Positions 1-19,162 of a DNA stretch of 19,162 nucleotides are shown here, piece after piece. The DNA comes from a virus (Duplodnaviria > Heunggongvirae > Uroviricota > Caudoviricetes). The notes under the pieces were generated by a model that worked only from the letters and a program-made list of their open reading frames with translations, ran no database searches and was not told the DNA's origin. Positions within the stretch are counted from its first letter, which is position 1. The number at the start of each line of letters is the position of its first letter. The DNA lies in the IMG/VR virus record IMGVR_UViG_2734482785_000012, positions 1-19,162 of that record. One strand, 5' to 3'. The position numbers were made by a program, and so were the translations under genes.

Positions 1-429
1 GCAGGGAAAGTTCTTCCTGAGGTATTTGCTTCCGGTAAAAATGCAGAAGTTTGGGCCGCAGGTCTGAAATATGACGCTAACAACATTTACCTGGCCACTA
101 CCTATTCTGAAACCCAGAATATGACTGTATTTGCTGATCACTTCGTTGCTAATAAAGCCCAAAACTTCGAAGCTGTTGCACAATATCAGTTCGATTTCGG
201 TCTGCGTCCGTCCGTTGCTTACCTGCAATCTAAAGGTAAGGATCTTGGAGTATGGGGCGATCAGGACTTAGTCAAATATGTTGATGTAGGTGCAACCTAT
301 TACTTCAACAAAAATATGTCTACTTTCGTTGATTACAAAATCAACCTGCTTGACAAAAATGATTTCACCAGAGGTCTTGGTATAAACACCGACGATATTG
401 TTGCTGTTGGTATGGTTTACCAGTTCTAA
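1..429 (+). CDS. Outer-membrane general porin, OmpC/NmpC family (3' part; 5' end is outside the window)
   Basis: Frame 1 is open from base 1 to the stop at 427-429. Translation carries porin motifs ([59 protein letters not shown]) and ends in the C-terminal Phe typical of general porins (GMVYQF). Convergent with Q, as for phage-borne porins of the nmpC/lc type. Confidence 0.85.
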
Positions 430-481
430 TCTTTTTATTAAAAAGATATGTTGTGAGGAGATATTTATCTCCTCACAACAT
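430..481 (-). terminator. Rho-independent terminator for minus-strand transcripts (tR'-like position downstream of Q)
   Basis: Near-perfect 16-bp inverted repeat atgttgtgaggagata / tatctcctcacaacat (448-481). On the minus strand it is followed by a T-run (reverse complement of 430-447 reads atctttttaataaaaaga). Confidence 0.5.
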
Positions 482-510
482 GTGGGTGACGCCCTCACGT
501 CACTGCATTA

Positions 511-538
511 AGAAAGACATTTTTGTCTTTTCTTTTTT
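511..538 (+). terminator. Possible intrinsic terminator (imperfect hairpin plus T-tract)
   Basis: agaaagaca-ttttt-tgtcttttct followed by ttttt. Stem is imperfect. Confidence 0.35.
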
Positions 539-571
539 AAACCTTCTGTTATTTTTTTACCATAAACTTCC

Positions 572-597
572 GGGGCGTTTTTACGCCCCTCTTTTTA
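572..597 (+). terminator. Rho-independent terminator downstream of the porin gene
   Basis: GC stem ggggcg / cgcccc (572-577 / 584-589) with a T-rich loop, followed by tcttttta. Confidence 0.5.
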
Positions 598-621
598 TTC
601 AACTTTGTTAGCTAACGTTAG

Positions 622-1005
622 TCAATTACACCTGCCAACTTCAGGATCCATCTCAAGGCGCACTCCCAATGCCATCAACATCCCCTCGACTATTCCTTCA
701 GCCTTCTGAAGTCTTTTTCCTATATATCCATCAGAACAATGATGCTTACGGGCCAGCGCCATAAACGTCATACCAGCCACATAATAATCTACCAGCAAAT
801 CATGCAAATCACTGTTGTTCTTTTTCAAGCGAGCCATACACCCACAAATAACCATTGCATCATCATCACTACATTGCGGACGTGATTTAACCTTTGGAGG
901 AATAAGCCCCTTGAATCCGGCGGCAATAGATGGCCAGGTAACATCCTCGTGGTTATTTACCACCCATGCTCCCCAACGCTCAAGAACCATCTGAATATCA
1001 CGCAT
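622..1005 (-). CDS. Lambdoid late-gene antitermination protein Q
   Basis: 127-aa ORF. ATG at 1005..1003 is preceded by GGAGG (reverse complement of 1006-1022). The translation ([24 protein letters not shown]...CGCMARLKK...) matches my recollection of Q-family antiterminators of the phage 21/82 (QuuD-like) type. Position is as expected: last gene of the early-right operon, just upstream of the late region. Confidence 0.8.
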
Positions 1006-1247
1006 CAGCGCAACACCTCCTGCACCAGCTTTTCAAACTTTCCAACTCTGGTTTCCAGCTCTGCCACACAGTCCACCAGCTCATCCACCGCTTTTTGTGC
1101 GCGATGTTTCACCTGCATCAGTTCCCTGAGCGCTGGAACCACATCCCGACGAATGGCATCTTTTGTTACACCCGTCTTTTCCAGTTGTTCAGCATGACGC
1201 AACATTTCCTGTGCCTGTTTACGTAATTGCTCAGGGGTAAAAGTCAT
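1005..1247 (-). CDS. Hypothetical small phage protein (about 80 aa, predicted helical/coiled-coil)
   Basis: ORF ends with TGA overlapping the Q start (tgATG). First ATG is at 1247..1245, 12 nt after the helicase stop; the track used an upstream TTG at 1262. No strong SD, so likely translationally coupled. Confidence 0.45.
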
Positions 1248-1258
1248 TGTCTGGTTGT

Positions 1259-2650
1259 TCAAAAGAAACGCTCCATCTTACTGCTGTCAGTTCGTTTGTT
1301 GCTGTATCTGCGCGGCTGGGGCTGCTGCATTGGGGTGGAAAGAATCTGTGCGCTTTCCTGATCCACAGGCAGAAAATGTCCGTTATAAAAACGCCGGTAA
1401 ATCGTCCCCAGAGAACCGTTACGTTGTTTCGTGATATTGATTTCTGCGATGCCCCTGGCCTGCGTATCCGGGTTGTACACTTCATCCCTGTAAAGCATCA
1501 GAATGATGTCTGCATCCGCCTCTATTTCTCCGGAATTTTTCAGATCTGAGTTCATAGGTCGTTTATTGGGCCTGGACTCCACACCACGGGAAAGCTGGCT
1601 TAGCGCAATCAACGGAAAACCACCGGATTTTGCCAGGCCTTTAAGCCCCTTTGAGATTTCACCCACGGCAAGGTCATGACGTCCCGTGGTTCGGGTTTTT
1701 ATCAGCCCGAGATAATCAACCACCACCAGCGCCGTTTCCGGATGTTTAATCAGGTGGTGTTTCGTTGTTGCGCATATCTCATCAATCGTCAGGTTCGCCT
1801 GGTCCACCATCCAGATATTGCGCCCGGTCATCCGCCCCACCCCTTGTGAGAAACGTGCCCAGTCTTCGTCTTCAAAGTGAGTGACAGATTTCAGGCGTGA
1901 TACCGGCATTCCTCCAGCCGCAGATACCATGCGTTCACCAATCTGGATGTTCGCCATTTCCATTGTGAACAGAAGAACACCATGCCCCTGCTCAGTTACC
2001 TTGTCGATGATATCCAGCGCCAGTTCGGTTTTGCCCATTGACGGACGAGCCGCAATGAACACCAGGTCGCCGGGTTCCATGCCGCCTGTTTTTGCGTCCA
2101 GTTCATCAATACCGGTCATCAGTGTCCTGGATTTCTCCTGTCCCTGATTCCGGCATTCAACACGCTCAACCACTTCCGGAAGCACATCATCAATATGTAC
2201 CGGCTGAATAGCGCCCTTTTCCGTCGACAATGAAGCCATCATGTTCTGCGCATCCTTCAGGGCATCTTCAGCTGCTTCACAGGTATGCGCATCACGTAAT
2301 TTCTGCAGCGCCTCATTCAGTGTTTTTTCTGCATCACGCAATGCAGCATTGCGCCGCAACGCTGCAACATAGTGCTCCAGTGAAGACTTCACCCAGGTTT
2401 TACGCCCGGTATCAGTAATCACCGGGGCAAGTTCCGGCATCTCATTACACAACAGCACAGGGTCAATCACGCCTGAAACACGGGCCTGTCTGCAGATGCC
2501 TGTGTAGATATCCCGATACGCTCGTACAGAAAAAACGTCTGCCGGCAATGTGGCCAGAATATCCATCACTTCATGATCTGCCCCACGCAGAAAGAACGCG
2601 CCAATGACAGCGCCTTCCAGATCATCGTTACGCCAGACTGGTGTTGTCAT
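1259..2650 (-). CDS. DnaB-family replicative DNA helicase
   Basis: 463-aa ORF with Walker A in the DnaB context (AARPSMGKTELAL), a Walker B-like VVVDYLGL, and a DnaB-like N-terminal domain. Start ATG overlaps the stop of the upstream loader gene (ATGA). Confidence 0.85.
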   Translation of the reverse strand: MTTPVWRNDDLEGAVIGAFFLRGADHEVMDILATLPADVFSVRAYRDIYTGICRQARVSGVIDPVLLCNEMPELAPVITDTGRKTWVKSSLEHYVAALRRNAALRDAEKTLNEALQKLRDAHTCEAAEDALKDAQNMMASLSTEKGAIQPVHIDDVLPEVVERVECRNQGQEKSRTLMTGIDELDAKTGGMEPGDLVFIAARPSMGKTELALDIIDKVTEQGHGVLLFTMEMANIQIGERMVSAAGGMPVSRLKSVTHFEDEDWARFSQGVGRMTGRNIWMVDQANLTIDEICATTKHHLIKHPETALVVVDYLGLIKTRTTGRHDLAVGEISKGLKGLAKSGGFPLIALSQLSRGVESRPNKRPMNSDLKNSGEIEADADIILMLYRDEVYNPDTQARGIAEINITKQRNGSLGTIYRRFYNGHFLPVDQESAQILSTPMQQPQPRRYSNKRTDSSKMERFF

Positions 2651-3525
2651 GCAGCCACACCTCTGATACGAGAACGATAGCTGGGCCAGTTAAACGACAA
2701 CCAGTTGCGTCCCCCGTCTGTGATCCTGTCGGCAATGCGGGGGCTGATGAACGCCCACAACTCTTCCGGTGAAAGGTTGCTGATCAGGATCGTGGGCAAG
2801 ATACTTTCGTACCGGGCATTGATAATTTCCTGCAAAATAGCCATTTCAGCCGCGCTGCCAAACTGAACGCCGACTTCGTCGATGATCAGCAAATCCATTG
2901 ACGCATAATGCTCAATAACTTCATCCGCTGTTTTTTCGCTGTCATTCCGCCAGCAGTTTTTCACAGCACGGGTAAGGCGCATCACATCGGTGATCTCCAC
3001 ACTGGCCAGATAGTTACGGATGATGTGTTTTGCCATTGATACCGCCAGATGATTTTTCCCGGTTCCGCAACTACCAGTCATAACAAGACTGGTACCGTTC
3101 TCCAGCATATCTGGCCAGTTCTCCGCATAGCGGCGACAGGCCGCAAGATTTCTGGCTGCGTCAGGATTAACCTCCAGATAATTATCAAACTCGCAGTCCC
3201 GAAAACGCAGGGCAATTCCGGCGTTATCAGTCAGCTCTTCCGCCTTGATGGACGACAGCCCCATGGTCAAATCGTTGGCCTCAGCGATCAAGCAGTCAGG
3301 GCAGCATGAAATTTTTTCTCTGTCCTCGCCATTGCGATCGCTCCACACCAGTATATGCGTATGGTATTTACCATGTTTTTCGCAATACCCGTGACCTTCA
3401 CGCATCAGGCAGGAACGATAAGTCCATGGCTTTTCGCCCTTCTGAGCAAATGCAATCTCTGCCCGTAACTCATCCATTCGCGCCTGTAGTCTTGTTTGTT
3501 TCTCACGCTGGTTAATCGTCATCAT
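2647..3525 (-). CDS. DnaC/IstB-like AAA+ helicase loader with N-terminal Cys-rich (zinc-ribbon-like) region
   Basis: Walker A MTGSCGTGKNHLA and Walker B LLIIDEVG. N-terminal C-x-n-H and CCPDC motifs. Likely start is ATG at 3525..3523, preceded by GAGGTG overlapping the stop of the O-like gene; the track used GTG at 3534. Confidence 0.8.
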   Translation of the reverse strand: MMTINQREKQTRLQARMDELRAEIAFAQKGEKPWTYRSCLMREGHGYCEKHGKYHTHILVWSDRNGEDREKISCCPDCLIAEANDLTMGLSSIKAEELTDNAGIALRFRDCEFDNYLEVNPDAARNLAACRRYAENWPDMLENGTSLVMTGSCGTGKNHLAVSMAKHIIRNYLASVEITDVMRLTRAVKNCWRNDSEKTADEVIEHYASMDLLIIDEVGVQFGSAAEMAILQEIINARYESILPTILISNLSPEELWAFISPRIADRITDGGRNWLSFNWPSYRSRIRGVAA

Positions 3526-3535
3526 CGCTGTCACC

Positions 3536-4462
3536 TCAGAATGTCAATTTGTCACTGGATTTACCGAATTTGTCAGACATGGCTCCCAGGCCAGCCAGGA
3601 CATCGACCTGTCGCTGTCGCCCACCTCCGGGAGCGGCTGGCTGTTGCCAGAAATCTTCGAAGTGACGATCGGGTCCAAAGAACGTCGCAGCCTGCTTCAC
3701 GAACTGTGTGCCGGTATTTCCTGTAGCACGTACCCAAGCGGCATAACGTCTCACACCATCAAGCATGGTCTCCGGTTTTATTCCCTCCCTGAGACGGGCT
3801 TTCCAGGCTTTGAAGGCTGCCGACTTGGAATTACCACCAGCACGTTTGGGATATTCCTGCCAAGCCTGTTCAAATTCCGGTGAATATTCCTGTCGGGCAG
3901 AGCGCGCTGGTGCAGACGCGTCAGCGGATGCGCCAATATCTTGCGGATCATGTTTTGAATTTACTTGCGGATCATGTTTTAAACCTTGTGGATCTGGGGC
4001 CAGATTCTGAAGGGTCAAAACCGTTTTTTTGCCAGAATCTGAAGGGTCAAACACACCTGAACATTCAGATTCTGACGGGTCAAATTTTGAAGGTTCAGAT
4101 TCTGACGGGTCACGTAATACTGAAAGTCTGCGTTGCTGTTTCAGTTCAGCGACCTTATCCCGCTCCGTTCTGGCAAGCTGCTCAAGCCGATCAGCATTCA
4201 GATGATAAAGATTGGACGTATTACGATTACCTTTGCGACGTGACTGACGCGTCAGCCAGCCATCAGCCTCCAGCTCTGAAATTGCCGTTCTTACTGTGCT
4301 TTCTCCCAACCCAAGCTGTCGGCATATTGTTTCAACACCGGGATAACACACCCCGTCATCATTCGAATAATCAGCCAGACGCGCCATGATCATCAGCTTT
4401 GCACCTTTGACTCCATACGCGGCACATGCATCCCAGACGTTACCGAGAATTTTGCTACTCAC
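3536..4462 (-). CDS. Replication initiator (lambda O-like position) with N-terminal helix-turn-helix and internal repeats
   Basis: 308-aa ORF with GTG start preceded by GGGAGG. N-terminus is HTH-like (GESTVRTAISELEADGWL). The central region has peptide repeats (DPSESEPSKFDPSESECSGVFDPSDSG; KHDPQVNSKHDPQD) encoded by the DNA iterons. Sits immediately upstream of the loader and helicase. Confidence 0.65.
   Translation of the reverse strand: MSSKILGNVWDACAAYGVKGAKLMIMARLADYSNDDGVCYPGVETICRQLGLGESTVRTAISELEADGWLTRQSRRKGNRNTSNLYHLNADRLEQLARTERDKVAELKQQRRLSVLRDPSESEPSKFDPSESECSGVFDPSDSGKKTVLTLQNLAPDPQGLKHDPQVNSKHDPQDIGASADASAPARSARQEYSPEFEQAWQEYPKRAGGNSKSAAFKAWKARLREGIKPETMLDGVRRYAAWVRATGNTGTQFVKQAATFFGPDRHFEDFWQQPAAPGGGRQRQVDVLAGLGAMSDKFGKSSDKLTF
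3941..4113. repeat. Putative phage origin of replication: iterons inside the initiator gene
   Basis: Four copies of cagaWtctgaMgggtca at 4001-4018, 4033-4050, 4066-4083 and 4096-4113 (spacing 30-33 bp), each containing the palindromic tcaga/tctga. Upstream are two copies of ttgcggatcatgtttt (3941-3956, 3965-3980) plus a degenerate third (3986-4001). Confidence 0.6.
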
Positions 4463-4682
4463 ACGGCACCTCCCAGGCGTTTAAACATTTTTCCGGACTG
4501 AAACACCGCCAGAGGGTAACTGATGGTGTAGTTACGCCCCAGTAATTCACACACAACTTTCTGGCTTTCGATACTGACCAGACAAACCCGCAGAACGTGA
4601 CCATTGCTGGTGGTGAACCACTGCCCCACACGGGGCAACGGTTGTATCGGTGATACAGAGAATTCACAACGCGACGAATCAT
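4455..4682 (-). CDS. Hypothetical small protein (75 aa, Trp/Cys-rich)
   Basis: ATG at 4682..4680 preceded by GGAGGTG. Stop overlaps the initiator start by 8 nt. Confidence 0.45.
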   Translation of the reverse strand: MIRRVVNSLYHRYNRCPVWGSGSPPAMVTFCGFVWSVSKARKLCVNYWGVTTPSVTLWRCFSPEKCLNAWEVPCE

Positions 4683-4873
4683 GGACGCACCTCCGCCGTA
4701 GTTACGTATTTAACCGGGCTACCTTTCATTGAGATGGTTTCACACATCTCTGCCGCTTTGCGTTCCGCCGTTTTTCTGGATTTATAGCGGCGGTGCCAGA
4801 CAGATGTATCTGTGCGAACTGATACATCGTTTCTGTATTCCGTTGTGGAAATAATAATTTCGTAACTAATCAT
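4679..4873 (-). CDS. Hypothetical small protein (64 aa)
   Basis: ATG at 4873..4871 preceded by GGGAGG, with near-identical start context to the next gene (tcATGgacgcRcctcc). The track began at an upstream ATG at 4888 that lacks an SD. Confidence 0.4.
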   Translation of the reverse strand: MISYEIIISTTEYRNDVSVRTDTSVWHRRYKSRKTAERKAAEMCETISMKGSPVKYVTTAEVRP

Positions 4874-5232
4874 GGACGCGCCTCCCATTGATTACGGCGG
4901 AAAGCGGTATGACTGAGGCTGTTTTCTGCCTCATGGAATGCTTCAATGCAGCTCTCGTAGTACCGCATTGTGCGCAGACTTAACCCAAGCTGAAGCATCA
5001 TCAGGCCATCAAGGGTGATGTAATAACCACGCAGAGAATCACCATAGATGTGATAAGTGCACGGTATGAAATTGCGGGTAAAAAACTCGCGCGAGCAGTT
5101 CAGATACTCGATTTTGTCGACGATGTTCTGGTGCATGCGCTTAAAGTGGCAGGCAACATGCAGGGAGAAAATAACAGCTTTGCAGTTGACGACTTCGATT
5201 TTGAGGAATGGGGAAGTTGGGACTGTAGCCAT
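4870..5232 (-). CDS. Hypothetical protein (121 aa from the ATG at 5232; the same frame stays open to an ATG at 5532, giving 220 aa)
   Basis: ATG at 5232..5230 is preceded by GGAGG and the codon usage looks coding (TTC, ATC, AAC, GAA). The N-terminal extension 5233-5532 is GC-rich with rare codons, and its start lacks an SD, so the longer model is uncertain. Confidence 0.4.
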   Translation of the reverse strand: MATVPTSPFLKIEVVNCKAVIFSLHVACHFKRMHQNIVDKIEYLNCSREFFTRNFIPCTYHIYGDSLRGYYITLDGLMMLQLGLSLRTMRYYESCIEAFHEAENSLSHTAFRRNQWEARP

Positions 5233-5556
5233 GATGGCAGCCTCCGTATGCAATGGATAACTTCCACCACCGGAGGTTCCAAGCTCGCTGGTGGCGGACT
5301 GAACAGGGTTGGAACGACCGGCGCATACGGAAACCGGCGAGCCTTTCGGCTCCCCTGCCCAGCCCACCATAATTCTGGCGTGCGTGAGCGCGGACGATAA
5401 AAAAGACGCTGGCGCGTCGTATATCGCCGTATGCAATTCCGAGGTTCCAATCCCGGCACCCGCTTTATAAGGTGCGGAGACAGTGTAGCGTCCCGAAATT
5501 GCAGAATCAATATTTAGGCTTGAAACATTCATATGCTTACTGGTATTTTTACTAAC

Positions 5557-5647
5557 GCAAATGTTCTTGGATGTTACTGGCTTACTTCTTTTGTGAAGTT
5601 GCCTTTACTAACGTTGAGCGAGCCGGGTCACTCCCCGGCTTTTTTTC
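5557..5647 (+). ncRNA. Putative short antisense RNA (lambda oop-like arrangement) ending at a plus-strand intrinsic terminator
   Basis: Plus-strand hairpin agccggg-tcactc-cccggct (5621-5640) followed by tttttt (5641-5646); no plus-strand gene ends here. Candidate promoter ttgaaa (5520-5525), 18-bp spacer, tatttt (5544-5549). Predicted RNA of about 90 nt, antisense to the Rha 3' end and the intergenic region. Confidence 0.3.
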
Positions 5648-6395
5648 ACCGCTGCCAACCAATAACCTGAAATAACCCCATTTTCGGGTGATACCAGCGA
5701 GTCCCTCGCGGTTCTACTTCCTCCATAACCCGATAAAAAGCAGCCATAAACGGTTCCACAGCAACAATTGCGCGACGTGACAACAATCCGTCCGGCGTCA
5801 TGAACTCATGTGTGTCTGTAGGAATTTGATAGGCGTTCACCAGATTGCGGCATTTATCATCTGACAAACCGGTTTTCGCTTTCAGTTGGCGATATCCGGC
5901 ATAGCCCTCACGAATGGTGCCCTTTTTGATTTGCTCAACTGTTTCGGCAACGTGGCTGACTTTTTCTTCCACCTGAGTGATCCGTTTCTGCTGACGAACA
6001 GCTTCAAGAGCCATCGCAGCAACCATTTCGATTTCGCTCATTGGTTTACGGATCTGTTCTTCCAGTTCGCGCCAGCGATCTACCAGGCGAGCAGTGAATT
6101 CAGGACAGAGCTGTGCGACGACAATGATGCTGTCGCGCTTACCTTGTTCTCCTTCAAACAGGTAATGCTCATATTGAACTTTAAAACCTAAGTTATTGAT
6201 TCTTTCGGAAACCTCAATTTGAGGAGACCGGACAACGCCACCTTTGGCTAATGTTTCAATAGTGCGTTTCACATTGTCATGACGTTTACCCACCAGCTCT
6301 GCAATTTCAACGCTGGTCATGGATACTTTGCCGTTAAAAATTGCGGTGTTCACTACCATCTCCTTACGGATAAATTCTTTTAAAATTCCGCACAT
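5646..6395 (-). CDS. Phage regulatory protein, Rha family (N-terminal Rha domain plus C-terminal domain of unknown function)
   Basis: Translation contains the Rha-type motif VEIAELVGKRHDNVKRTIETL. True start may be an internal GTG or ATG near 6353-6359, which is preceded by AAGGAG; the ATG at 6395 lacks an SD. Confidence 0.65.
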   Translation of the reverse strand: MCGILKEFIRKEMVVNTAIFNGKVSMTSVEIAELVGKRHDNVKRTIETLAKGGVVRSPQIEVSERINNLGFKVQYEHYLFEGEQGKRDSIIVVAQLCPEFTARLVDRWRELEEQIRKPMSEIEMVAAMALEAVRQQKRITQVEEKVSHVAETVEQIKKGTIREGYAGYRQLKAKTGLSDDKCRNLVNAYQIPTDTHEFMTPDGLLSRRAIVAVEPFMAAFYRVMEEVEPRGTRWYHPKMGLFQVIGWQR

Positions 6396-6472
6396 TCGTA
6401 CTTGTTGGTGTCGAACCTTTCTTCAGTTATCCTTTTGATCCCTATAAACAAAAGAACCAAAGGAGGTTCGAC

Positions 6473-6940
6473 ATGACTTTAAAATCAGTTCACAAGCTGC
6501 TAAAAGAGCATCTTTATACTCTGTATTCGGTTTTGCCTGCGTCCACGAAAGCAATTGAACTTCGAAATCGAACTAGTTGTCGCGCTATTGCTTTAACTTT
6601 TCTTTACCAAGCAATCATGGATTACAAACGCAACCATGCACTGCTAGGCTTATCTTCCCGAGAAACAATCATTCACATGCTTTACGAGGATGCAAAACTT
6701 ACAATTACTGACTTGGAACAAATTCAGCTTTCGCTTGTACTGAAAATTCTTGCTCCCCGTTTTGCGCGAATAGAAGCCAGTGTTTCTCCCGATTTTTCTG
6801 CAATGGTTCAAGACATGACTCAATGGCTTGAAGACAACTCCGAATGGATTTCGAGGTCTCATGAAGCAACTTCAGATCTTCCTGAATTAAAATGGTCAGA
6901 TCTTCCGAACGAGTTGTTTCCACTAACTCTAGGTAAGTAA
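6473..6940 (+). CDS. Hypothetical protein (155 aa)
   Basis: ATG at 6473 preceded by a near-perfect SD, AAAGGAGGT, 7 nt upstream. On the opposite strand to the surrounding early-right operon. Its 3' 236 bp overlap the convergent ORF 6705..7124. Confidence 0.5.
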   Translation: MTLKSVHKLLKEHLYTLYSVLPASTKAIELRNRTSCRAIALTFLYQAIMDYKRNHALLGLSSRETIIHMLYEDAKLTITDLEQIQLSLVLKILAPRFARIEASVSPDFSAMVQDMTQWLEDNSEWISRSHEATSDLPELKWSDLPNELFPLTLGK

Positions 6941-7124
6941 TTTTTTTCGACATATCGTCAAGTACATCTCGTAAACCGTCAGCTAAGGAAGGCAGACGGT
7001 TTACGGCATACCGTAAAGGTCCACCAGAATCCATCTCTTCAGCCGCTTCCGCTAACTCCTTGAGGTAAAGATTTATTTGACGATCAGTCATTCCAGTCGC
7101 ACTAATTTTGATTTTGTTATCCAT
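6705..7124 (-). CDS. Hypothetical protein (139 aa) immediately downstream of cro (cII/YdaT position)
   Basis: ATG at 7124..7122 preceded by GGGAGG. C-terminal part overlaps the plus-strand ORF 6473..6940, so the true 3' end is uncertain. Confidence 0.45.
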   Translation of the reverse strand: MDNKIKISATGMTDRQINLYLKELAEAAEEMDSGGPLRYAVNRLPSLADGLRDVLDDMSKKITYLELVETTRSEDLTILIQEDLKLLHETSKSIRSCLQAIESCLEPLQKNREKHWLLFAQNGEQEFSVQAKAEFVPSQ

Positions 7125-7160
7125 ATTTCCTCCCGCAACCTGCTAAAACAAATCCGTTCA

Positions 7161-7406
7161 TCACTTCTCATCCTCTATATGCGCTAAGCTTGGGTGTGGG
7201 AAAAGTTCTGGTAGATCTGGACGAAATTCATACGCCTGGATCTTTCCGTCGACAGCTGCAACCAATAACGGCACAAATTCGGGTGAAATTTTGTTCTTGC
7301 AGTTAAGCCAATCACAGACTGTTGATTGAGCCTTTCCGCATCGCTTGGCTAAGGCTTGTTGGCTCCCAAGAATCTCAATGGCTTTCTCTATAGCTTTATG
7401 TTTCAT
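7161..7406 (-). CDS. Cro-like HTH regulator (YdaS/Cro family)
   Basis: 81-aa product from the ATG at 7406..7404, preceded by AGGAG. HTH segment LGSQQALAKRCGKAQSTVCDWLN. Divergent from the CI-like gene. The track's longer model starts at 7478. Confidence 0.65.
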   Translation of the reverse strand: MKHKAIEKAIEILGSQQALAKRCGKAQSTVCDWLNCKNKISPEFVPLLVAAVDGKIQAYEFRPDLPELFPHPSLAHIEDEK

Positions 7407-7525
7407 AATCGCATCTCCTATTGACGACATAATATCAATAGGTAATTCGATATTCAACGTTAAACCTAGAAGTTTCATCGGAAAGCCGATAAACTGCCCA
7501 ATATAGAGAGGAGAGGAAGATCACA
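7407..7525. promoter_or_regulatory. Divergent immunity-region promoter/operator (OR-like) between the cro-like and CI-like genes
   Basis: Palindrome cctattga-N10-tcaatagg at 7417-7442. Candidate minus-strand PR: -35 ttgaat (7457..7452), 17-bp spacer, -10 tattat (7434..7429), overlapped by the palindrome. Second palindrome atcgg-aaag-ccgat near 7477-7490. The motif AATAGGTAA recurs at the promoter at 8287-8315. Confidence 0.5.
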
Positions 7526-8218
7526 ATGACATTTTCAGAACGACTTGATTTAGCTATGCGCAACGCAAAATTTACGCAAGGCAGGCTAGCCAAAGAAGTA
7601 GGTATGGCCCAGTCAAGCGTCAATCAATTACTTAACAAAGCCAACGGCTCTAGGAAAACAGTTGAAATAGCAAAAGTTTTGGGCGTTAACCCGGAATGGC
7701 TCGCATCTGGTGTCGGCCCAATGGAAATCGAGACCTCTGCAGACTCACACCAAATACGTAACATTTCAGAAGACAGAGTTACTGATTCGTATGTCGTGGA
7801 TGTTTTAGACATCAGATACAGTTGCGGACCTGGTAGTTATAACTCTGATTTTCCAGACATTGTCAGATCTATAGCGATAGAACCAGGATACGCATCAAGA
7901 GTTTTTGGCGGCAGACCAGCATCAGCAATCAAAGCAATAAACGCCCACGGCGACAGCATGAAAGGCACAATAAACCCTGAGGACTTGGTGTTTGTTGACG
8001 TATCAGTTCGCTCATTTAATGGCGATGGTATATACGCTTTTACATACTCTGGAACATCGCACATCAAAAGGCTTCAAAAAATCAAAGATACCCTAACAGT
8101 GATCTCAGACAATCCAGCTTACAAAGATTGGGCTATCGAACAAGATGACTTCGAGCAACTTCACATTGACGGAAAAGTAATCGTAAGTTGGCCTATGACG
8201 CTACACCGTTTCGCATAA
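7526..8218 (+). CDS. cI: CI-like prophage repressor (N-terminal HTH, C-terminal LexA/S24 peptidase-like autocleavage domain)
   Basis: 230-aa ORF with SD gagaggagagg upstream. HTH segment QGRLAKEVGMAQSSVNQLLN. C-terminal Ser/Lys dyad motifs GDSM and KRL. Confidence 0.85.
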   Translation: MTFSERLDLAMRNAKFTQGRLAKEVGMAQSSVNQLLNKANGSRKTVEIAKVLGVNPEWLASGVGPMEIETSADSHQIRNISEDRVTDSYVVDVLDIRYSCGPGSYNSDFPDIVRSIAIEPGYASRVFGGRPASAIKAINAHGDSMKGTINPEDLVFVDVSVRSFNGDGIYAFTYSGTSHIKRLQKIKDTLTVISDNPAYKDWAIEQDDFEQLHIDGKVIVSWPMTLHRFA

Positions 8219-8240
8219 GCGATAATTATTTAACACCCCG

Positions 8241-8265
8241 CCCACTCCACGAGTGGGTTTTTTTT
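8241..8265 (+). terminator. Rho-independent terminator after the CI-like gene (possibly bidirectional)
   Basis: Stem cccactc / gagtggg with loop cac, followed by tttttttt (8258-8265) and flanked by an A-run on the other side (8266-8274). Confidence 0.65.
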
Positions 8266-8286
8266 GAAAAAAAATCGACAAACCGA

Positions 8287-8315
8287 TTGACACCACAAAT
8301 AGGTAAACCTATTAT
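8287..8315 (+). promoter_or_regulatory. Strong sigma70-type promoter with embedded palindromic operator (PL/OL-like)
   Basis: -35 TTGACA (8287-8292), 17-bp spacer, -10 TATTAT (8310-8315). The spacer and -10 contain the palindrome AATAGGT-AA-ACCTATT (8298-8313). Confidence 0.6.
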
Positions 8316-8364
8316 CATGACATAAGTATCGAACTCACCAAAACAATTATAGAGGATGAGGAAA

Positions 8365-8775
8365 ATGTCATCGTATATGGGGTTACCAACAAATCAACAC
8401 GATGTTCTTGAGAATATTCAACTCTTAGTAGGGGCTGGAGCACTACTGTATAGCAGCAATAACCCAGAGTTAGTTGAACTTGCCAGCTCCATCCTAGCTG
8501 TAACTCAAAAATATAGCCTCGCTGCGTCGCGTTCATGTAAACAAAATTTAGCTATTAATTCACGGAATCGGATTCGTATCCAACGCGAAGCCTGCGGCTT
8601 AACAACCGCCGAACTCGCCAGGCTGCTCGATCTCGATGAAGAAATCATCATCCAGTGGGAGAGCGGAGAGTATGAACCAACTATCAGTATGCTTATCCCG
8701 CTGGCAAATGTTCTTGGTTGCGACCCGATGTGGCTGTTAACCGGTAAACCAACAGCTGAGGATACTTGCGCATGA
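8365..8775 (+). CDS. Helix-turn-helix (XRE/Cro-C1-type) DNA-binding protein, first gene of the early-left transcript
   Basis: C-terminal HTH region GLTTAELARLLDLDEEIIIQWESGEYEPTISMLIPLANVLGCDPMWLLTG. ATG at 8365; the track started at 8356. Stop overlaps the next start (ATGA). Confidence 0.55.
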   Translation: MSSYMGLPTNQHDVLENIQLLVGAGALLYSSNNPELVELASSILAVTQKYSLAASRSCKQNLAINSRNRIRIQREACGLTTAELARLLDLDEEIIIQWESGEYEPTISMLIPLANVLGCDPMWLLTGKPTAEDTCA

Positions 8776-9137
8776 AAAAGTTCGAAAACATAACTGTTCT
8801 CCATGTTGATGAATTTGATTATACAAACCAGGAATTTCTCCCGGAGGTTATAAAAGCAATAGAAGTTGCCGATATAGTGTTTAGAGGAAAGAGAATTGTC
8901 AAAAACAGGCTCGCATGCACTTCAGGAGCAATGACAGAAACAACCTCACAACAAGATGATTATGAAGGCATTTGTCTGGAGCCTGATTCATTTGCGGTAA
9001 ATGTTTATCATTTATTGCATGCAACACAGGTATTACATATGTCCAGTAATCACGAGACAAAAACACTTGGCAGCGAAATTCTGAATTTTGCATGTGAATA
9101 TGCAAAAGCTGCTGCCGAAAAAGAATTAGCACAATAA
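8772..9137 (+). CDS. Hypothetical protein (121 aa), translationally coupled to the HTH gene
   Basis: ATG at 8772 overlaps the upstream TGA. GAGGA lies 9 nt upstream. No motif recognised. Confidence 0.5.
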   Translation: MKKFENITVLHVDEFDYTNQEFLPEVIKAIEVADIVFRGKRIVKNRLACTSGAMTETTSQQDDYEGICLEPDSFAVNVYHLLHATQVLHMSSNHETKTLGSEILNFACEYAKAAAEKELAQ

Positions 9138-9217
9138 CAACAAACATGCCCTGAACGTTTATTACGGTTTTATCGCCGGGGATTGTTACAACCTTTATTC
9201 ATAGAGGGAACTCAGTT

Positions 9218-9331
9218 ATGACTTTCCTGAAAAATAAGGCATCGTATAAAACTGCCTGCCTCATTGCACAACATGGAGATTCTTATCTTCATATAGCCAA
9301 CCTGTATTTGCGCAAAGCATATGGGAGATAA
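9218..9331 (+). CDS. Small ORF (37 aa)
   Basis: ATG at 9218 preceded by agaggg. Stop lies 4 nt before the next start. Too short to judge on composition. Confidence 0.3.
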   Translation: MTFLKNKASYKTACLIAQHGDSYLHIANLYLRKAYGR

Positions 9332-9335
9332 ATAA

Positions 9336-9524
9336 ATGGAAGAAAAACAACAGAACATAACACATGAAAAAGTAAGAGTGTTGCTAACCATTGAAAATGG
9401 GAAAGTAATTTACTCAAAACATCTGTTGGATAATGAATTCGTTGGTTGCATGGATACATTTCTGTGGATGGCAAAAAGAGCTGGCTACACGATTATTCCA
9501 CCAGCAAAGGAGCAAACATTATGA
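9336..9524 (+). CDS. Hypothetical small protein (62 aa)
   Basis: ATG preceded by GGGAGA. Stop overlaps the next start (ATGA at 9521-9524). Confidence 0.45.
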   Translation: MEEKQQNITHEKVRVLLTIENGKVIYSKHLLDNEFVGCMDTFLWMAKRAGYTIIPPAKEQTL

Positions 9525-10102
9525 ATCATTCAGAGTTCCGACCAGTGGTTACGCCACATGGCATAAAAATTGGCAATACAACCATTGATTATGTTGAGGC
9601 CGTACAGCGGCTTAATAATGGTGAATACGATTATCCAAATTCTCACGGTTTAAGAATTATGCAATGTATTGCTGAAGCCGATGATGCCGGATTACTGGGA
9701 CGATTTTCAGTCGATATGAAGGTTGCTCAATGGCGATGGCTGTATGTGACAACATTTATAAATGAAGAGGAAGACAAGAACGGCACTGTTGATATCCCTA
9801 ACGATAATGGAACTACAGCTCGCGCAGTTATTTATAAAGGGAAATATGGTTGTATGGGTATCTACCCAGGATCAATTCGAATTGCCCTGCAAAACCATGT
9901 CGAACGGGGATTTATTGAAAAATATGGCGAAGCTGAAGGCATGGGGCGAGTTCTGTTTCTCTATCAAAAAATGCTCATCGTAGATCCAGGCAATGGCTTC
10001 ATTACCTCTACTATGGGACGCGAAGGACTTGAACTCCTTCTGGATGAAATGATTCACGATCTGAATACTCATGGTATGCCAGAAGCGCCAGTGACACATT
10101 AA
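9521..10102 (+). CDS. Hypothetical protein (193 aa), AT-rich accessory gene
   Basis: ATG at 9521 preceded by AAGGAG (8-nt spacing). The track's longer model starts at 9446. No motif recognised. Confidence 0.55.
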   Translation: MNHSEFRPVVTPHGIKIGNTTIDYVEAVQRLNNGEYDYPNSHGLRIMQCIAEADDAGLLGRFSVDMKVAQWRWLYVTTFINEEEDKNGTVDIPNDNGTTARAVIYKGKYGCMGIYPGSIRIALQNHVERGFIEKYGEAEGMGRVLFLYQKMLIVDPGNGFITSTMGREGLELLLDEMIHDLNTHGMPEAPVTH

Positions 10103-10109
10103 ATATTAA

Positions 10110-10134
10110 GAAGAATATAATTCTTCCGTTTTTT
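10110..10134 (+). terminator. Rho-independent terminator
   Basis: Stem gaagaat / attcttc with loop ata, followed by cgtttttt. Confidence 0.6.
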
Positions 10135-10147
10135 ACTAACCGTTTAT

Positions 10148-10255
10148 ATGAAAAGCAACCGTGAATTAAGCAGAGTAAAACTGCTTTTAATCCTTGCCAC
10201 AGTACTGACACTAACAGAAATCATTATTCTCTTTATTGCGCTGTCAGTCAGTTAA
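10148..10255 (+). CDS. Small hydrophobic peptide (35 aa, single predicted transmembrane helix)
   Basis: Translation MKSNRELSRVKLLLILATVLTLTEIIILFIALSVS. No clear SD, and shorter than the ORF-track cutoff. Confidence 0.3.
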   Translation: MKSNRELSRVKLLLILATVLTLTEIIILFIALSVS

Positions 10256-10278
10256 AAATATCGGGATGCAACAAACCA

Positions 10279-10467
10279 ATGAGATTGTATTTCAGAATAG
10301 TAATTTTACTGGCAATTATCGCATGCATTTACGGACTACTCGTCCCGTTCCTTATATCCATGAAGGATACGGTAGCAGTCATTTCCGGTTTTGCACTGGC
10401 GTTTCTGACCCCGCCCTGCATTTATGCCATTTACAAGGGTCTTTCTTTCACTAAGGATAAAAGATGA
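10279..10467 (+). CDS. Small membrane protein (62 aa, two predicted transmembrane helices)
   Basis: Hydrophobic segments IVILLAIIACIYGLLVPFLI and VAVISGFALAFL. Stop overlaps the start of the SPFH gene (ATGA). Confidence 0.4.
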   Translation: MRLYFRIVILLAIIACIYGLLVPFLISMKDTVAVISGFALAFLTPPCIYAIYKGLSFTKDKR

Positions 10468-11291
10468 AAAAAGTTATTTTTGCTTTAGCCATTGTTCTTC
10501 CGACCATTGGCCTTGTCGGTTGCGATCGCGTTGAACCAGGTAATGTTGGCATTAAGGTAAATAAACTGGGCGACGACAAAGGCGTCGGTGAAGTGGTTGG
10601 CGTTGGCCGCTACTGGACCGGCTGGAATACTGAAGTTTACATCTTCCCGACCTTCAAACAAATGAAGACCTACGATGAACCGTTCAGTTTCCAGATGAGT
10701 GACGGTACAACCATCGGCTATCACATCGGCGTGGCCTACAAGGTTGATCCATCCAAAGTTACCACGGTGTTTCAGACTTACCGCAAAGGCGTGGATGACA
10801 TAACCGATACCGACCTGCGTCAGAAGATCGCCGACGCACTCAACCGACTGGCCAGCAAAATGACCACCGACAAATTTATCGACGGCGGGAAGTCTGAACT
10901 ACTGGATGCAGCTCTTAAAGACATTCAGGAGGAAATGACCCCCATCGGTATTCAGGTAATGAGCCTCTCATATGTGGGTAAGCCGGAGTACCCGTCAACC
11001 GTTATCGACAGCATTAATGCCAAAGTCACGGCGAACCAGAAAACCCTGCAACGCGAACAGGAAGTAAAACAGCGCGAAGCGGAAGCCAACATGTTGCGCG
11101 CGGAAGCTGCCGGACAGGCAGATGCAATTCGCACAAAAGCCCAGGCCGAAGCCGATGCTATTCGTTTACGCGGTGAAGCTCTGCGCCAGAACCCCGGAGT
11201 TATGGAACTGGAAGCCATCAATAAATGGAACGGCATACTGCCGCAATACATGACCAGCGGTGCTAATACACCATTTATCCAGGTTAAATAA
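10464..11291 (+). CDS. SPFH/band-7 (prohibitin/stomatin-like) domain lipoprotein
   Basis: Signal peptide with lipobox LVGC (MKKVIFALAIVLPTIGLVGC). Central SPFH-like domain and a C-terminal Ala/Glu/Gln-rich coiled coil (QREQEVKQREAEANMLRAEAAGQADAIRTKAQAEADAIRLRGEA). SD AAGGA upstream. Confidence 0.75.
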   Translation: MKKVIFALAIVLPTIGLVGCDRVEPGNVGIKVNKLGDDKGVGEVVGVGRYWTGWNTEVYIFPTFKQMKTYDEPFSFQMSDGTTIGYHIGVAYKVDPSKVTTVFQTYRKGVDDITDTDLRQKIADALNRLASKMTTDKFIDGGKSELLDAALKDIQEEMTPIGIQVMSLSYVGKPEYPSTVIDSINAKVTANQKTLQREQEVKQREAEANMLRAEAAGQADAIRTKAQAEADAIRLRGEALRQNPGVMELEAINKWNGILPQYMTSGANTPFIQVK

Positions 11292-11331
11292 CTTATACGC
11301 CCGGCAGGGCGCCGGGCTAAGGAAAGAACAG

Positions 11332-11703
11332 ATGAACACCCAGAATACTCAACAGCAAATAATGAACTATGACCCAAATCTGACGTCGTGCGGACGCATG
11401 GCAAAACAAACCGTTCGATTAACTTTCGGACTATGGGAATACCGCGAAACATTCGAAGTTACTGTCGGTGGCAATCTGACCGGACTGGATGTTATCAGTT
11501 GCGCTATTGAAAGCCTGTACGCAACGCTGCCTTATGAAGAAGTCGAGGATGAGCGCACAGGGGAAACAGATATCATGGCCACCATTAATATTGGCGAACT
11601 GATATGTCAGGATGAAGACCTGTCTGGAGAACTCTGGCTTGCCGGGATGCTTATCTCAGCAGAAATTATCAGTATTGAACCCGCTACAAACATACGGCTC
11701 TGA
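11332..11703 (+). CDS. Hypothetical protein (123 aa)
   Basis: ATG at 11332 preceded by aaggaaag. The track's longer model starts at 11260. Preceded by the GC stem-loop gcccggc-agggc-gccgggc (11299-11317). Confidence 0.5.
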   Translation: MNTQNTQQQIMNYDPNLTSCGRMAKQTVRLTFGLWEYRETFEVTVGGNLTGLDVISCAIESLYATLPYEEVEDERTGETDIMATINIGELICQDEDLSGELWLAGMLISAEIISIEPATNIRL

Positions 11704-11734
11704 AGTTCTCATTATTCAGAGAGCAGGAGAAAAA

Positions 11735-11977
11735 ATGTTCGCTTTGATTAATCAAGGACAACTGTATACCGACAGTGCAGGTTACCCGGTAAAAATTATT
11801 CGCTGCATAAATAACACTGTGTTGTACAGAAGAATGGATGGGCGAACACAGTCGGTAAAACTAAACGATTTTAATGAATTGTTTGAACGGCTCGATCACC
11901 AGGAATACCGACAAATTCTGGCAGAAACAGAACAGGAAACTCATCTGAAGAAATTACGAGCCATGCAAAGGAAGTAA
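11735..11977 (+). CDS. Hypothetical protein (80 aa)
   Basis: ATG at 11735 preceded by gcaggag. The track's longer model starts at 11612. Confidence 0.5.
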   Translation: MFALINQGQLYTDSAGYPVKIIRCINNTVLYRRMDGRTQSVKLNDFNELFERLDHQEYRQILAETEQETHLKKLRAMQRK

Positions 11978-11980
11978 AGA

Positions 11981-12127
11981 ATGAATAAAGCGTTTGAGCT
12001 ATGGGTACGCCAGCGTTACGGCAATCGCTATGACCTGACGCGAGATGTTGACGGTTTCTACTGCCGTGAAATTGTGAAACGAATGTTTGAAGTGTGGTGC
12101 CACTGCCGTGGACTGAATGTTGTGTGA
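11981..12127 (+). CDS. Small ORF (48 aa, Cys/Trp-containing)
   Basis: ATG at 11981 preceded by aggaag, 3 nt after the previous stop. Translation MNKAFELWVRQRYGNRYDLTRDVDGFYCREIVKRMFEVWCHCRGLNVV. Confidence 0.35.
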   Translation: MNKAFELWVRQRYGNRYDLTRDVDGFYCREIVKRMFEVWCHCRGLNVV

Positions 12128-12135
12128 GGTGAACT

Positions 12136-12345
12136 GTGGGGCTGGATTGCGTACCTATATCAACCTACTGCCGCAACGCGGGAGAAACGGTTGATGCCGT
12201 TAACAAACGGATACAAAGAGGAATATGGAAAGAAGGGGTACATGTATTAAAAGTCGACGGGGTTAAAGAACGTTGGGTCGACTTAATGGAGATTACAAAA
12301 TGGGCAAGAAAGAACAAGGATCATTATCTCTCCCCAGAGGAGTAA
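12136..12345 (+). CDS. xis: Excisionase-like DNA-binding protein (Xis position)
   Basis: 69-aa ORF with GTG start preceded by GAGGTG. Winged-helix-like pattern (ETVDAVNKRIQRGIW...VKERWVDLMEITKW). 3' end overlaps the integrase start by 46 nt, as in xis-int pairs. Confidence 0.55.
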   Translation: MGLDCVPISTYCRNAGETVDAVNKRIQRGIWKEGVHVLKVDGVKERWVDLMEITKWARKNKDHYLSPEE

Positions 12346-13472
12346 CTATTCGGCAACATAAAACTGGTAGCACTCTGGTTATCACTTTTACATATAAAGG
12401 GGTTCTGTGTCGGGAGCCCCTCTCCAGAATGGAAGTAAACGCGCGCGGTGTGAAGTACGCCGAGCGTCTGCTGGGAGAAATAAAAAATCAGATTATCGAT
12501 GGTACCTTCGAATATGCAAAATACTTCCCCAACTCCCAAAAGCTGAAGTTGTTCGGGGGAGTGAAAAAAAACAAAAATATAAAATCTTACCTGGATGAAT
12601 ACCTGATTATCTGCCAGAACCGTAACCTGTCACCATCGACAATTAGAGGTTATGAAAAATGCCTGTCGGCGCTGTCAGCATTGCATAAATTTCATGTATC
12701 AGAACTGACACCTGCAGTACTAAAAAACTGGATCGCCAGCAGAAAAACAAAACTGAAAACGATCCGCAATAATCTTTCGTTTCTGCGCAGCGCCATAGAT
12801 GAGGCGGTGACCGATGGTTTGTTAACAATAAATCCTGTCACGCTAGTCAGCGCCAGCCGATATCACGTATTAGACAACACACCAGGCAGTGATGATTACG
12901 AGGTCGATCCTTTTACGCCAGCGGAGACAGCAGCAATCTATGACGCCTGTCATTACCCGGAATGGCGAAATCTATTTCGCTTCGCCTTTAATACCGGGCT
13001 GCGCAGCTCGGAATTGTGCGCATTGCGCTGGACAGATATAGACTTCATCGGCAACACAGCGCATGTCCAGACTGCAAGTGTAGTCGGGGTAATCAAAAGC
13101 ACCAAAACAAAAGCCGGCACTCGCAAAGTACAACTGAACAGCGAAGCGCTGGCAGCTCTTCAGGCACAAAAGCCCTACACGGCGCTAAAAAGCGACTTTA
13201 TATTCAGCGATCCAAAAACTCGCGCCCCTTGGGCAAACGCGGACGCGATCCGAAAAAAAGCCTGGGTGCCGACCCTTAAAAAGGCTGGTGTACGCTATCG
13301 CAATCCGTACCAGACACGCCATACGTTCGCCACTCGGCACATTAGCCAGGGCGTTAACCTGTTCTGGCTTGCTGGTCAGATGGGGCATAAAGGACCGGAA
13401 ATGCTGTTCAGACATTACGGCTCTTACCTTGCAGAATACGATGGAAAAACGGCGATTTCTGCAGCCCCGTAA
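12300..13472 (+). CDS. int: Prophage tyrosine integrase (site-specific recombinase)
   Basis: Catalytic-domain motifs (TGLRSSELCALRW; HTFATRHISQGVNLFWLAGQMGHKGPEMLFRHYGSY with the R..H-x-x-R..Y signature). ATG at 12300; the track used an upstream TTG at 12273. Lies next to the attachment core. Confidence 0.85.
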   Translation: MGKKEQGSLSLPRGVTIRQHKTGSTLVITFTYKGVLCREPLSRMEVNARGVKYAERLLGEIKNQIIDGTFEYAKYFPNSQKLKLFGGVKKNKNIKSYLDEYLIICQNRNLSPSTIRGYEKCLSALSALHKFHVSELTPAVLKNWIASRKTKLKTIRNNLSFLRSAIDEAVTDGLLTINPVTLVSASRYHVLDNTPGSDDYEVDPFTPAETAAIYDACHYPEWRNLFRFAFNTGLRSSELCALRWTDIDFIGNTAHVQTASVVGVIKSTKTKAGTRKVQLNSEALAALQAQKPYTALKSDFIFSDPKTRAPWANADAIRKKAWVPTLKKAGVRYRNPYQTRHTFATRHISQGVNLFWLAGQMGHKGPEMLFRHYGSYLAEYDGKTAISAAP

Positions 13473-13604
13473 CGGCAAAATATTTCAAAATGTTGTACAG
13501 AATCAGGACGTTACAGGGACAGCAATATGTACGTAAAATGCACATAATTCCTTGTTTGAAAAAATAAATCGTTCATATTCAATAAATTGGATTAATCACG
13601 ATCA

Positions 13605-13631
13605 CGGGTTCAACTCCCGCCAGCTCCACCA
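13605..13631 (+). other. ssrA: Attachment-site core: 27 nt matching the 3' end of tmRNA (ssrA); a fragment, not a complete gene
   Basis: cgggttcaactcccgccagctccacca matches the 3' terminus of the E. coli tmRNA as I recall it. Sequence upstream of 13605 diverges from ssrA. Lies between the prophage int and the P4-type integrase. Confidence 0.65.
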
Positions 13632-13796
13632 CTTTTTAGTTGTTTGAAGTTCAATGAAGTCTACTAAGCCCACACAGCACAAGCTCTGCGGGCTTTTTTA
13701 CGTCTATTGTCGTCCAGTGAGAATTGCTGAGAACTACGAGTTATGGCACCCTGAATGGGACCCACTAAGAAGGGTCCAAAAACCGAGGGTCCCAAA

Positions 13797-15026: not shown

Positions 15027-15064
15027 GTATCAGAATAGCTAATATAATCCTGAAGGTAAAGAAA

Positions 15065-15481: not shown

Positions 15482-15552
15482 ACAACATCATTGTGATGAT
15501 AAATATAAAATAGGCATGGCGAAAAAAAATCACCACGCCTAAAATATAATAA

Positions 15553-17301: not shown

Positions 17302-17302
17302 A

Positions 17303-19021: not shown

Positions 19022-19142
19022 TAGTCCTGCATACTTTTTGGCCTTAAGATCAAAGTGGGAATGTTCACGTTCAGTATGTGATGTATTTTGTGAAAGGAAT
19101 TCAAACGTTCCTATCTGAAGCTCAAATGGGCCGACCCCTGCG

Positions 19143-19162
19143 TGATCCTACCCACGTAATAT
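19143..19162. mobile_element. Probable terminal inverted repeat of an IS3-family insertion sequence (element continues beyond the window)
   Basis: tgatcctacccacgtaatat has the TGATC-TACCCA terminus typical of IS3-type inverted repeats. The first in-frame stop upstream of the kinase-like ORF (cta at 19148-19150) lies inside it. Confidence 0.45.

Follow-up and report, generated by a model that had tools for sequence, protein, structure and literature searches.

The DNA analysed here is a stretch of 19,162 nucleotides, positions 1 to 19,162 of the IMG/VR virus record IMGVR_UViG_2734482785_000012, which is referred to at its full length as the window. Positions 3940-4113 of the window most probably represent the vegetative replication origin (ori) of a phiP27-like lambdoid prophage of E. 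coli, located within the linker-coding part of its initiator gene. Two repeat families are present in this segment, i.e. an array of palindromic iteron cores and a set of GATCC-bearing units. The putative origin would belong to the lambdoid-type design class (ori-lambda, P22 ori, SPP1 oriL), with three or more repeated candidate initiator sites inside the initiator open reading frame (ORF). An earlier note on this DNA had proposed such a lambda-style iteron origin with two repeat families in the initiator gene, and this anatomy appears to hold: the repeats are conserved, they track the N-terminal domain of the initiator, and their position in the gene is close to that in lambda. The features of the region are given below in gene order.

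3536-4462, minus strand: replication initiator gene (from the ORF list), 308 aa, GTG start
4121-4462, minus strand: region coding for the N-terminal DNA-binding domain (approximately aa 1-114)
4095-4105: iteron core 1, TCAGAATCTGA, a perfect palindrome
4080-4090: iteron core 2, TCAAAATTTGA, a degenerate palindrome; relatives have TCAAAATCTGA
4065-4075: iteron core 3, TCAGAATCTGA
4032-4042: iteron core 4, TCAGATTCTGG
4017-4030: A4/T7 tracts between cores 4 and 5, read from the sequence
4000-4010: iteron core 5, TCAGAATCTGG; its frame (LTLQNL) differs from that of the other cores (DPSES)
3940-3999: second repeat family, in gene orientation GATCCACAAG-N11, GATCCGCAAG-N14, GATCCGCAAG
3938/3939: mosaic junction at the edge of the repeats; 'O' genes of Shiga toxin (Stx) phages match only 3536-3938
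3536-3938, minus strand: region coding for the C-terminal domain

The first repeat family reads as an 18-19-nt repeat in four copies on the plus strand (4000-4017, 4032-4049, 4065-4082 and 4095-4112), every one of which contains an 11-bp palindrome, TCAGAWTCTGA. The earlier note had described four evenly spaced 18-bp dyad repeats. These are present where it had placed them; their start-to-start distances of 32, 33 and 30 bp are roughly, not exactly, even, and the cores number five, the additional one (TCAAATTTTGA, 4080-4090) being degenerate, still palindromic and located between copies 3 and 4. In gene orientation the cores are spaced 15, 15, 33 and 32 bp from centre to centre. They span gene nt 358-463, behind the HTH_36 domain and ahead of the C-terminal domain. 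Core 5 lies at gene position 452 (2 mod 3), i.e. in a different reading frame, in the window's group of homologues. The A4/T7 tracts between cores 4 and 5 are candidate intrinsic-bend elements with a possible role in bending.

The repeats lie far above chance. The 19-mer has 3 matches at up to three mismatches, against 0.01 expected, and the 11-mer core, at up to one mismatch, has 4 matches within 106 bp of the ori and 1 elsewhere, against 0.45 expected for the whole window. In Tandem Repeats Finder the two families are the top-scoring tandem arrays of the window and its only sizeable ones. No further clustered direct-repeat family, and hence no alternative origin array, is found in the prophage part of the window. 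An RNA explanation of the ori was rejected: Rfam has no match there, and 5-bp stems with 1-nt loops would be unstable hairpins. The ori contains no consensus DnaA box (TTWTNCACA); the sole match in the window is at 2957-2965, a count below chance expectation. Strings resembling GATCCACA were discarded as DnaA boxes, being near-misses with 1-2 mismatches that are not conserved as such.

Homologues were taken from 80 IMG/VR loci with the N-terminal domain together with phage and E. coli records. The resulting set comprises 86 full-length genes (77 non-identical), whose N-terminal domains are 61-100% identical to that of the window. All 86 full-length homologues possess TCAGAWTCTGA-like cores, in 3-7 copies at approximately gene nt 300-470. 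Core copy number changes in 15-bp steps across the family, and this variation of the array (3 to 7 cores) suggests replication slippage within the origin. Relative to the window, the loci L002 (Stx2_KH16-043) and L012 carry one extra 15-bp iteron unit, TCTGAACCTTCAAAA, in columns 363-377 of alignment A1.

For a codon test, the linker was searched by the peptide pattern S[DEKN]S only, with no codons presupposed. The first Ser of this pattern is TCA in 274 of 314 cases (87%), compared with a background of 16% in the same genes, and the second is TCT in 294 of 314 (94%, background 10%). In the N-terminal domain, only 29-53% of the same-amino-acid codons are identical between the window and distant groups, i.e. 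synonymous sites are largely scrambled. Inside the cores, the middle base W swaps Glu and Asp and a G/A exchange swaps Glu and Lys, so that amino acids vary and the palindrome is kept. The fixed Ser codons, the palindrome retained despite amino-acid change and the one core in another frame argue that the repeats are constrained as DNA, and not merely as coding sequence. The earlier note had made its reading depend on repeats conserved at the DNA level among homologous initiator genes; the cores are found in 86 of 86 genes, and this check supports the reading.

The second repeat family comprises two exact copies of CTTGCGGATC... (16-17 nt, plus strand) at 3940 and 3964 and a third, partial copy, CTTGTGGATC, at 3985. 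The three units are spaced 24 and 21 bp, and their GATC sites are located at 3946-3949, 3970-3973 and 3991-3994. This is the repeat that the earlier note had given as 'ttgcggatcatgtttt' in two or three copies preceding the iterons; the repeat is real and lies at that place, and since the gene is on the minus strand it comes after the iterons in gene orientation, not before them. All family members possess the second family, with 2-4 units of the consensus GATCC-R-Y-M-A-G followed by an A/T-rich part, mostly at 24-bp spacing.

In the 60 nt past the last core, the A/T fraction at third codon positions is 0.82, compared with 0.50 in the N-terminal and 0.42 in the C-terminal domain (77 of 77 genes), while codon positions 1+2 remain flat at 0.46-0.49 across the second family and both domains. 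A rise at third codon positions with positions 1+2 flat points to a DNA-level signal, i.e. to selection on DNA, and fits an unwinding element squeezed into coding sequence. Over 51 bp the segment has an AT content of 63%, and it contains the least stable 50-bp stretch of the gene, not of the window. The second family is on these grounds a candidate DNA-unwinding or helicase-entry element. A strong DNA-unwinding element (DUE) was rejected, as the stability profile shows a modest minimum only.

GATC is approximately six-fold enriched behind the array in all 77 distinct genes. Under ordinary codon use, Asp-Pro is encoded as GAT CCN (GAT 79% elsewhere), and the GATC of the second family may be a by-product of Asp-Pro codons. 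In close relatives GAACC replaces GATCC in two of the three units, while the third unit, CCAGATCCACAAGG, is invariant. Control by Dam/SeqA via GATC was rejected because of the Asp-Pro codon use, the GAACC of these close relatives and the GAACC found throughout a sister subfamily. A likeness to the oriC 13-mer was dropped as well, GATCATGTTTTGA agreeing at 7/11 specified positions by eye.

The sister subfamily, also of HTH_36 type (loci L090-L174), possesses 2-4 copies of GAACCAGTCA directly behind the last iteron in 53 of 53 distinct genes. The copies are spaced 17 and 12 bp and occur in more than one reading frame in 50 of these 53 genes. The scan of the subfamily gave 23 distinct last-iteron sequences, and a near-invariant block, CCCAGAACCAGTCACTCTTTTGAACCAGTCA..., follows every last-iteron type (e.g. 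L110, locus nt 1441-1680). Two intermediates connect GAACCAGTCA with the window's GATCCGCAAG: a Klebsiella phage has three copies of GATCCGTCA spaced 12 bp apart, and the SfIV group has GATCCGTCAG.

With related GAWCC motifs behind every iteron type, the second family looks like a separate ori element independent of iteron specificity. We tentatively propose, with less than even confidence, that it is a distinct and widely conserved origin element. Its consensus would be GAWCCRYMA, with 2-5 copies spaced 12-24 bp apart directly behind the last iteron. This element might, as a possibility somewhat short of an even chance, extend to the HTH_36-type initiator genes of E. coli, Shigella, Klebsiella, Salmonella and Vibrio phages, with any of at least 20 palindromic iteron types and any C-terminal domain or helicase system. 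Since it does not depend on iteron specificity, it could act as a shared signal for unwinding or helicase entry; another possibility is a site for a conserved initiator surface (e.g. for single-strand binding in the DUE) or for a host factor. Single-strand binding in the DUE is described for plasmid Rep proteins.

The initiator contains Pfam HTH_36 (PF13730) in residues 23-70 (E=9e-12, 45.1 bits, cut-off 25) and matches PHROG 270, 'replication initiation protein' (E=3e-79). Among solved structures it has only weak matches, to the winged helices of FadR/PaaX. Pfam Phage_rep_O (PF04492) has no match in it at E<=0.01, and BLASTP detects no similarity to lambda O (best E 0.038 over 27 aa) or P22 gp18 (E=1.8). 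The earlier note had placed the repeats in an O-like gene. They are indeed in the initiator ORF; among the profile matches only the PHROG labels read 'O-like', and the protein appears to be an HTH_36 winged-helix analogue of lambda O, O-like in function only and not a homologue. A single-sequence AlphaFold2 (AF2) model, with a predicted local distance difference test (pLDDT) score of 51.5, shows helix/wing structure in residues 1-116, no secondary structure in 117-194 and helices in 195-296. With such a score the model is too poor for a fold search and was used for the domain/linker outline only, in which the ori-encoded residues (approximately 117-194) are probably an unstructured linker between a winged-helix N-terminal domain and a helical C-terminal domain. 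The initiator start (4455-4462) is GTG in the window and in phiP27 and ATG in relatives. It overlaps the stop of an upstream ORF of 75 codons (GTGTGA), which suggests translational coupling.

The initiator gene is mosaic. Many Stx-phage 'O' genes match the window's gene in the C-terminal domain only (query positions 1-403), with the match ending 1-2 bp from the end of the repeats; their N-terminal domains and their repeats are unrelated. The 'O' gene of Stx1_14040, for instance, has the window's C-terminal domain and an unrelated N-terminus, with TAYTCTCTG units and three copies of GGnTTTCCCnnnTCCGCGG at the equivalent position. Genes of the SfIV, SfII, EKP1 and Klebsiella type possess the window's N-terminal domain and cores together with other C-terminal domains, and the same cores accompany at least three C-terminal domain types. 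In HTH_36 homologues of 38-50% identity this position is taken by other palindromes (TATGCCATCTGATGGCA, CCTAGTGAC-N5-GTCAC and GGGGCAGGAGCTGCCC). The window's C-terminal domain type is followed directly downstream by a DnaC-like gene in 18 of 18 loci and by a DnaB-like gene in 17 of 18; groups with other C-terminal domains have a divergent loader/helicase pair or none. Across these genes the iterons co-vary with the N-terminal domain, independently of the C-terminal domain, which makes N-terminal domain plus ori the likely specificity unit and the N-terminal domain the predicted specificity partner of the iterons. The C-terminal domain presumably recruits the phage's loader/helicase pair.

One locus with these cores is L007, of the Elizabethkingia phage EKP1 (OM284015), which has an N-terminal domain 65% identical to that of the window and the same TCAGATTCTGA cores and GATCC units. 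In EKP1 a toprim primase/helicase comes after the initiator. The deposited host is Elizabethkingia (Bacteroidota), the initiator is of enterobacterial type, and the host assignment looks doubtful.

The mechanism that we propose from this anatomy starts with early minus-strand transcription, which would yield the initiator and pass through the origin. Initiator dimers would bind the 11-bp TCAGAWTCTGA palindromes via the N-terminal HTH_36 winged helix, at four strong sites approximately three helical turns apart and one weak site between two of them. The A/T tracts may aid the formation of a bent, O-some-like complex, as the anatomy and the precedents of lambda and SPP1 suggest. This complex would stress the adjacent 55-60 bp of GATCC-bearing, AT-rich 21/24-bp units, which would then melt, and the C-terminal domain of the initiator would load the phage's DnaC-like/DnaB-like pair there. 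The replisome would be completed by primase and polymerase of the host.

Several points weigh against this origin reading. The codon counts do not represent independent events, given that the family sequences are related and that slippage or gene conversion can homogenise the repeats of one gene. In close relatives the whole iteron array is at least as variable as the coding sequence on either side (13% vs 11% of columns); the conservation signal resides in the cores and in the comparison of distant groups. The AT-rich element is weak, the AT-rich tract of lambda being far more extreme, and the duplex stability of the second family is only among the least stable 12-18% of stability windows of this sequence. 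The structural model of the initiator is of low confidence (pLDDT ~51), the prophage could be defective, and initiator binding and origin activity are predicted from sequence. The weakness of the AT-rich element also speaks for an alternative in which the repeats are initiator-binding sites of mainly regulatory function (autorepression, roadblock, titration, handcuffing or incompatibility) and the true origin lies elsewhere in the prophage. Palindromes inside a gene could serve as operators, and plasmid iterons also act in copy control. We consider this unlikely, since the window, which covers a part of the prophage, contains no second iteron-like cluster, and since position, the order of iterons followed by an AT-rich part, and modularity match the experimentally defined origins of lambda, P22 and SPP1.

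The repeats might also be a by-product of a slippage-prone, disordered peptide linker (DPSES and DPQVNSKH repeats), with no function as DNA. The encoded linker is of low complexity and probably unstructured, its copy number shifts in in-frame 15-bp steps, and Asp-Pro codons (GAT CCN) can explain the GATC enrichment. A peptide-level origin of the repeats does not account, however, for synonymous sites that are fixed while amino acids vary, for a perfect DNA palindrome, which is meaningless at the protein level, or for the core in another frame and the multi-frame copies of the second family in the sister subfamily (50/53 genes). Together with an AT enrichment restricted to third codon positions and a repeat sequence that changes with the N-terminal domain type, these observations leave a mere peptide by-product with hardly any credibility. 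For the second family alone, a role mainly as a recombination 'linker' at a module boundary, exchanging N-domain/ori and C-domain/helicase modules rather than unwinding, is suggested by the mosaic junction 1-2 bp from its end and by the related GAWCC motifs between variable iterons and variable C-terminal domains in many phages. Passive crossover predicts neither a repeated motif (2-5 copies) nor third-position AT enrichment, nor a constant position right behind the last iteron, and we regard this role as very unlikely. Functional conservation would itself create a recombination hotspot, so that recombination is more a consequence than an alternative. The preferred reading remains that of a vegetative origin with iterons and a candidate unwinding element.

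Two further replication genes are located immediately downstream of the initiator gene; the earlier note had described the repeats, all inside the O-like gene, as lying directly upstream of a DnaC-like loader and a DnaB-like helicase, and profile matches confirm both.

2647-3534, minus strand: DnaC/IstB-like AAA+ helicase loader, 295 aa, directly downstream of the initiator gene
1259-2650, minus strand: DnaB-family replicative helicase, 463 aa

The loader matches Pfam IstB_IS21 (PF01695; E=4e-15, 56.3 bits, cut-off 24.1) and PHROG 50 (E=2e-88). Against NCBIfam DnaC it reaches E=1e-37 and 129.9 bits, under the equivalog cut-off of 357, and is therefore a relative, not an orthologue, of E. coli DnaC. 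The helicase matches DnaB_C (PF03796; E=8e-73, 245 bits) and the DnaB N-terminal domain (PF00772; 25.5 bits); its match to TIGR00665 (E=9e-94, 314.8 bits) is likewise under the equivalog cut-off (385). The earlier note had regarded the combination of loader and helicase as notable. Of 5426 complete E. coli genomes 352 possess the pair, which also occurs in phiP27 and in many Stx phages and has a studied precedent in SPP1 (PMC5737612), so that this composition is not unusual. The C-terminal domain type of the initiator occurs in 407 of the same 5426 genomes.

A Q antiterminator gene lies beyond the helicase gene, and the region upstream of the initiator gene contains Rha/Ash-type regulators and, on the opposite strand, a cI-like repressor gene. 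The repressor (HTH and Peptidase_S24) is encoded at 7526-8218 on the plus strand; a promoter-like site at 7429-7457 (minus strand) faces the minus-strand early operon and may drive transcription through the ori. Two Rfam matches above the gathering score, C4 antisense RNA (RF01695, 83 bits) at 5287-5374 and isrK (RF01394, 59 bits) at 5399-5475, both on the minus strand, are located within the ORF 4870-5532 (minus strand), which has Ash and Rha domains. They suggest a C4/antirepressor immunity element of P1/P7 type a short distance upstream of the replication genes. The early-left/accessory region of the prophage codes for an SPFH/Band-7 protein and a DUF5406 protein at 10464-11703 (plus strand). 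Tandem tyrosine integrases follow at 12273-13472 and 13755-15026 (both plus strand), the second being of P4 type with Arm-DNA-bind_3, and after them an AT-rich island at 15553-19021 (minus strand) with a HEF_HK/HATPase_c protein and a Response_reg_2 protein. Integrases and AT-rich island probably form an integrative island of their own, adjoining the end of the prophage.

The layout of the lambda ori is described elsewhere (PMC7466680). As in lambda, where the annotated iterons occupy nt 349-433 of O, at least four dyad-symmetric repeats (nt 358-463 here) are placed where the coding regions of the N- and C-terminal domains of the initiator meet, a stretch richer in AT is located on the promoter-distal side of the iterons, and N-terminal domain and ori are exchangeable as a specificity module, with the C-terminal domain tied to the helicase-delivery partner. 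In lambda, this modularity of N-terminal domain/ori and C-terminal domain goes back to domain-swap genetics. Unlike in lambda, the iteron core has 11 bp (18-19 bp in lambda) and a different sequence, the AT-rich part is much weaker and made of 21/24-bp GATCC units, and the initiator lacks sequence similarity to O as well as a Phage_rep_O Pfam match. Lambda uses P to hijack the DnaB of its host, whereas the phage of the window encodes a helicase of DnaB type itself, together with a DnaC-like loader. The phage named 'P27' in PMC7466680 has a lambda-type O with six iterons and is not phiP27.

P22 has an annotated rep_origin in its initiator gene 18 and its own DnaB-family helicase (gene 12, gp12) directly downstream. 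It differs in its gp18, which is of lambda-O type and unrelated to the initiator of the window, in its iterons and in the lack of a separate DnaC-like loader. SPP1 oriL, with iteron 'AB boxes' and an AT-rich DUE, is embedded in the initiator gene 38, and initiator, helicase loader and DnaB-type helicase (G38P/G39P/G40P) form the same three-part module (PMC5737612). The host of SPP1, in contrast, is Gram-positive (Bacillus) and its initiator belongs to an unrelated family (pfam09524). To our knowledge, G39P is not an AAA+ loader of DnaC/IstB type.

Iteron plasmids (P1 oriR, pSC101, RK2) resemble the putative origin in their multiple initiator-binding repeats beside an AT-rich repeat region, and GATC-bearing repeats occur in the unwinding regions of P1 and oriC. 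In plasmids, however, the iterons are usually direct repeats in intergenic DNA to which Rep monomers bind, and DnaA boxes accompany them; the putative origin, in contrast, consists of palindromes inside a gene and contains no consensus DnaA box.

Essentially the same element is present in phiP27 (NC_003356) at L17-L19, with an initiator 97% identical to L17 and a region 97% identical to L17-L19; the phiP27 record differs in having no origin annotation. With Rha/Ash genes located between cI and the replication genes, the region resembles the Eru7 type in layout (PMC8951638), and according to the Eru typing papers nothing is known of the replication proteins of such Stx phages (PMC8951638). Within the literature searched, no paper linked phiP27 with iterons or described this origin, and the core sequences appeared in unrelated papers only; the SfIV paper makes no mention of an origin.

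The design itself is textbook, and the finding extends that of lambda, P22 and SPP1 to a non-homologous initiator family. It assigns a concrete candidate origin to a replication module that is widespread among E. coli prophages and also occurs in phiP27 (Stx2e) and many Stx1/Stx2 phages. As the replication of Stx phages drives toxin gene dosage, knowledge of the ori and its specificity module would help studies of induction and incompatibility as well as phage engineering. The comparative data, with many N-terminal domain variants each accompanied by its own palindrome, represent a natural specificity table for winged-helix/DNA recognition. The newest lead is the conserved second ori element, which appears to be independent of the iterons.

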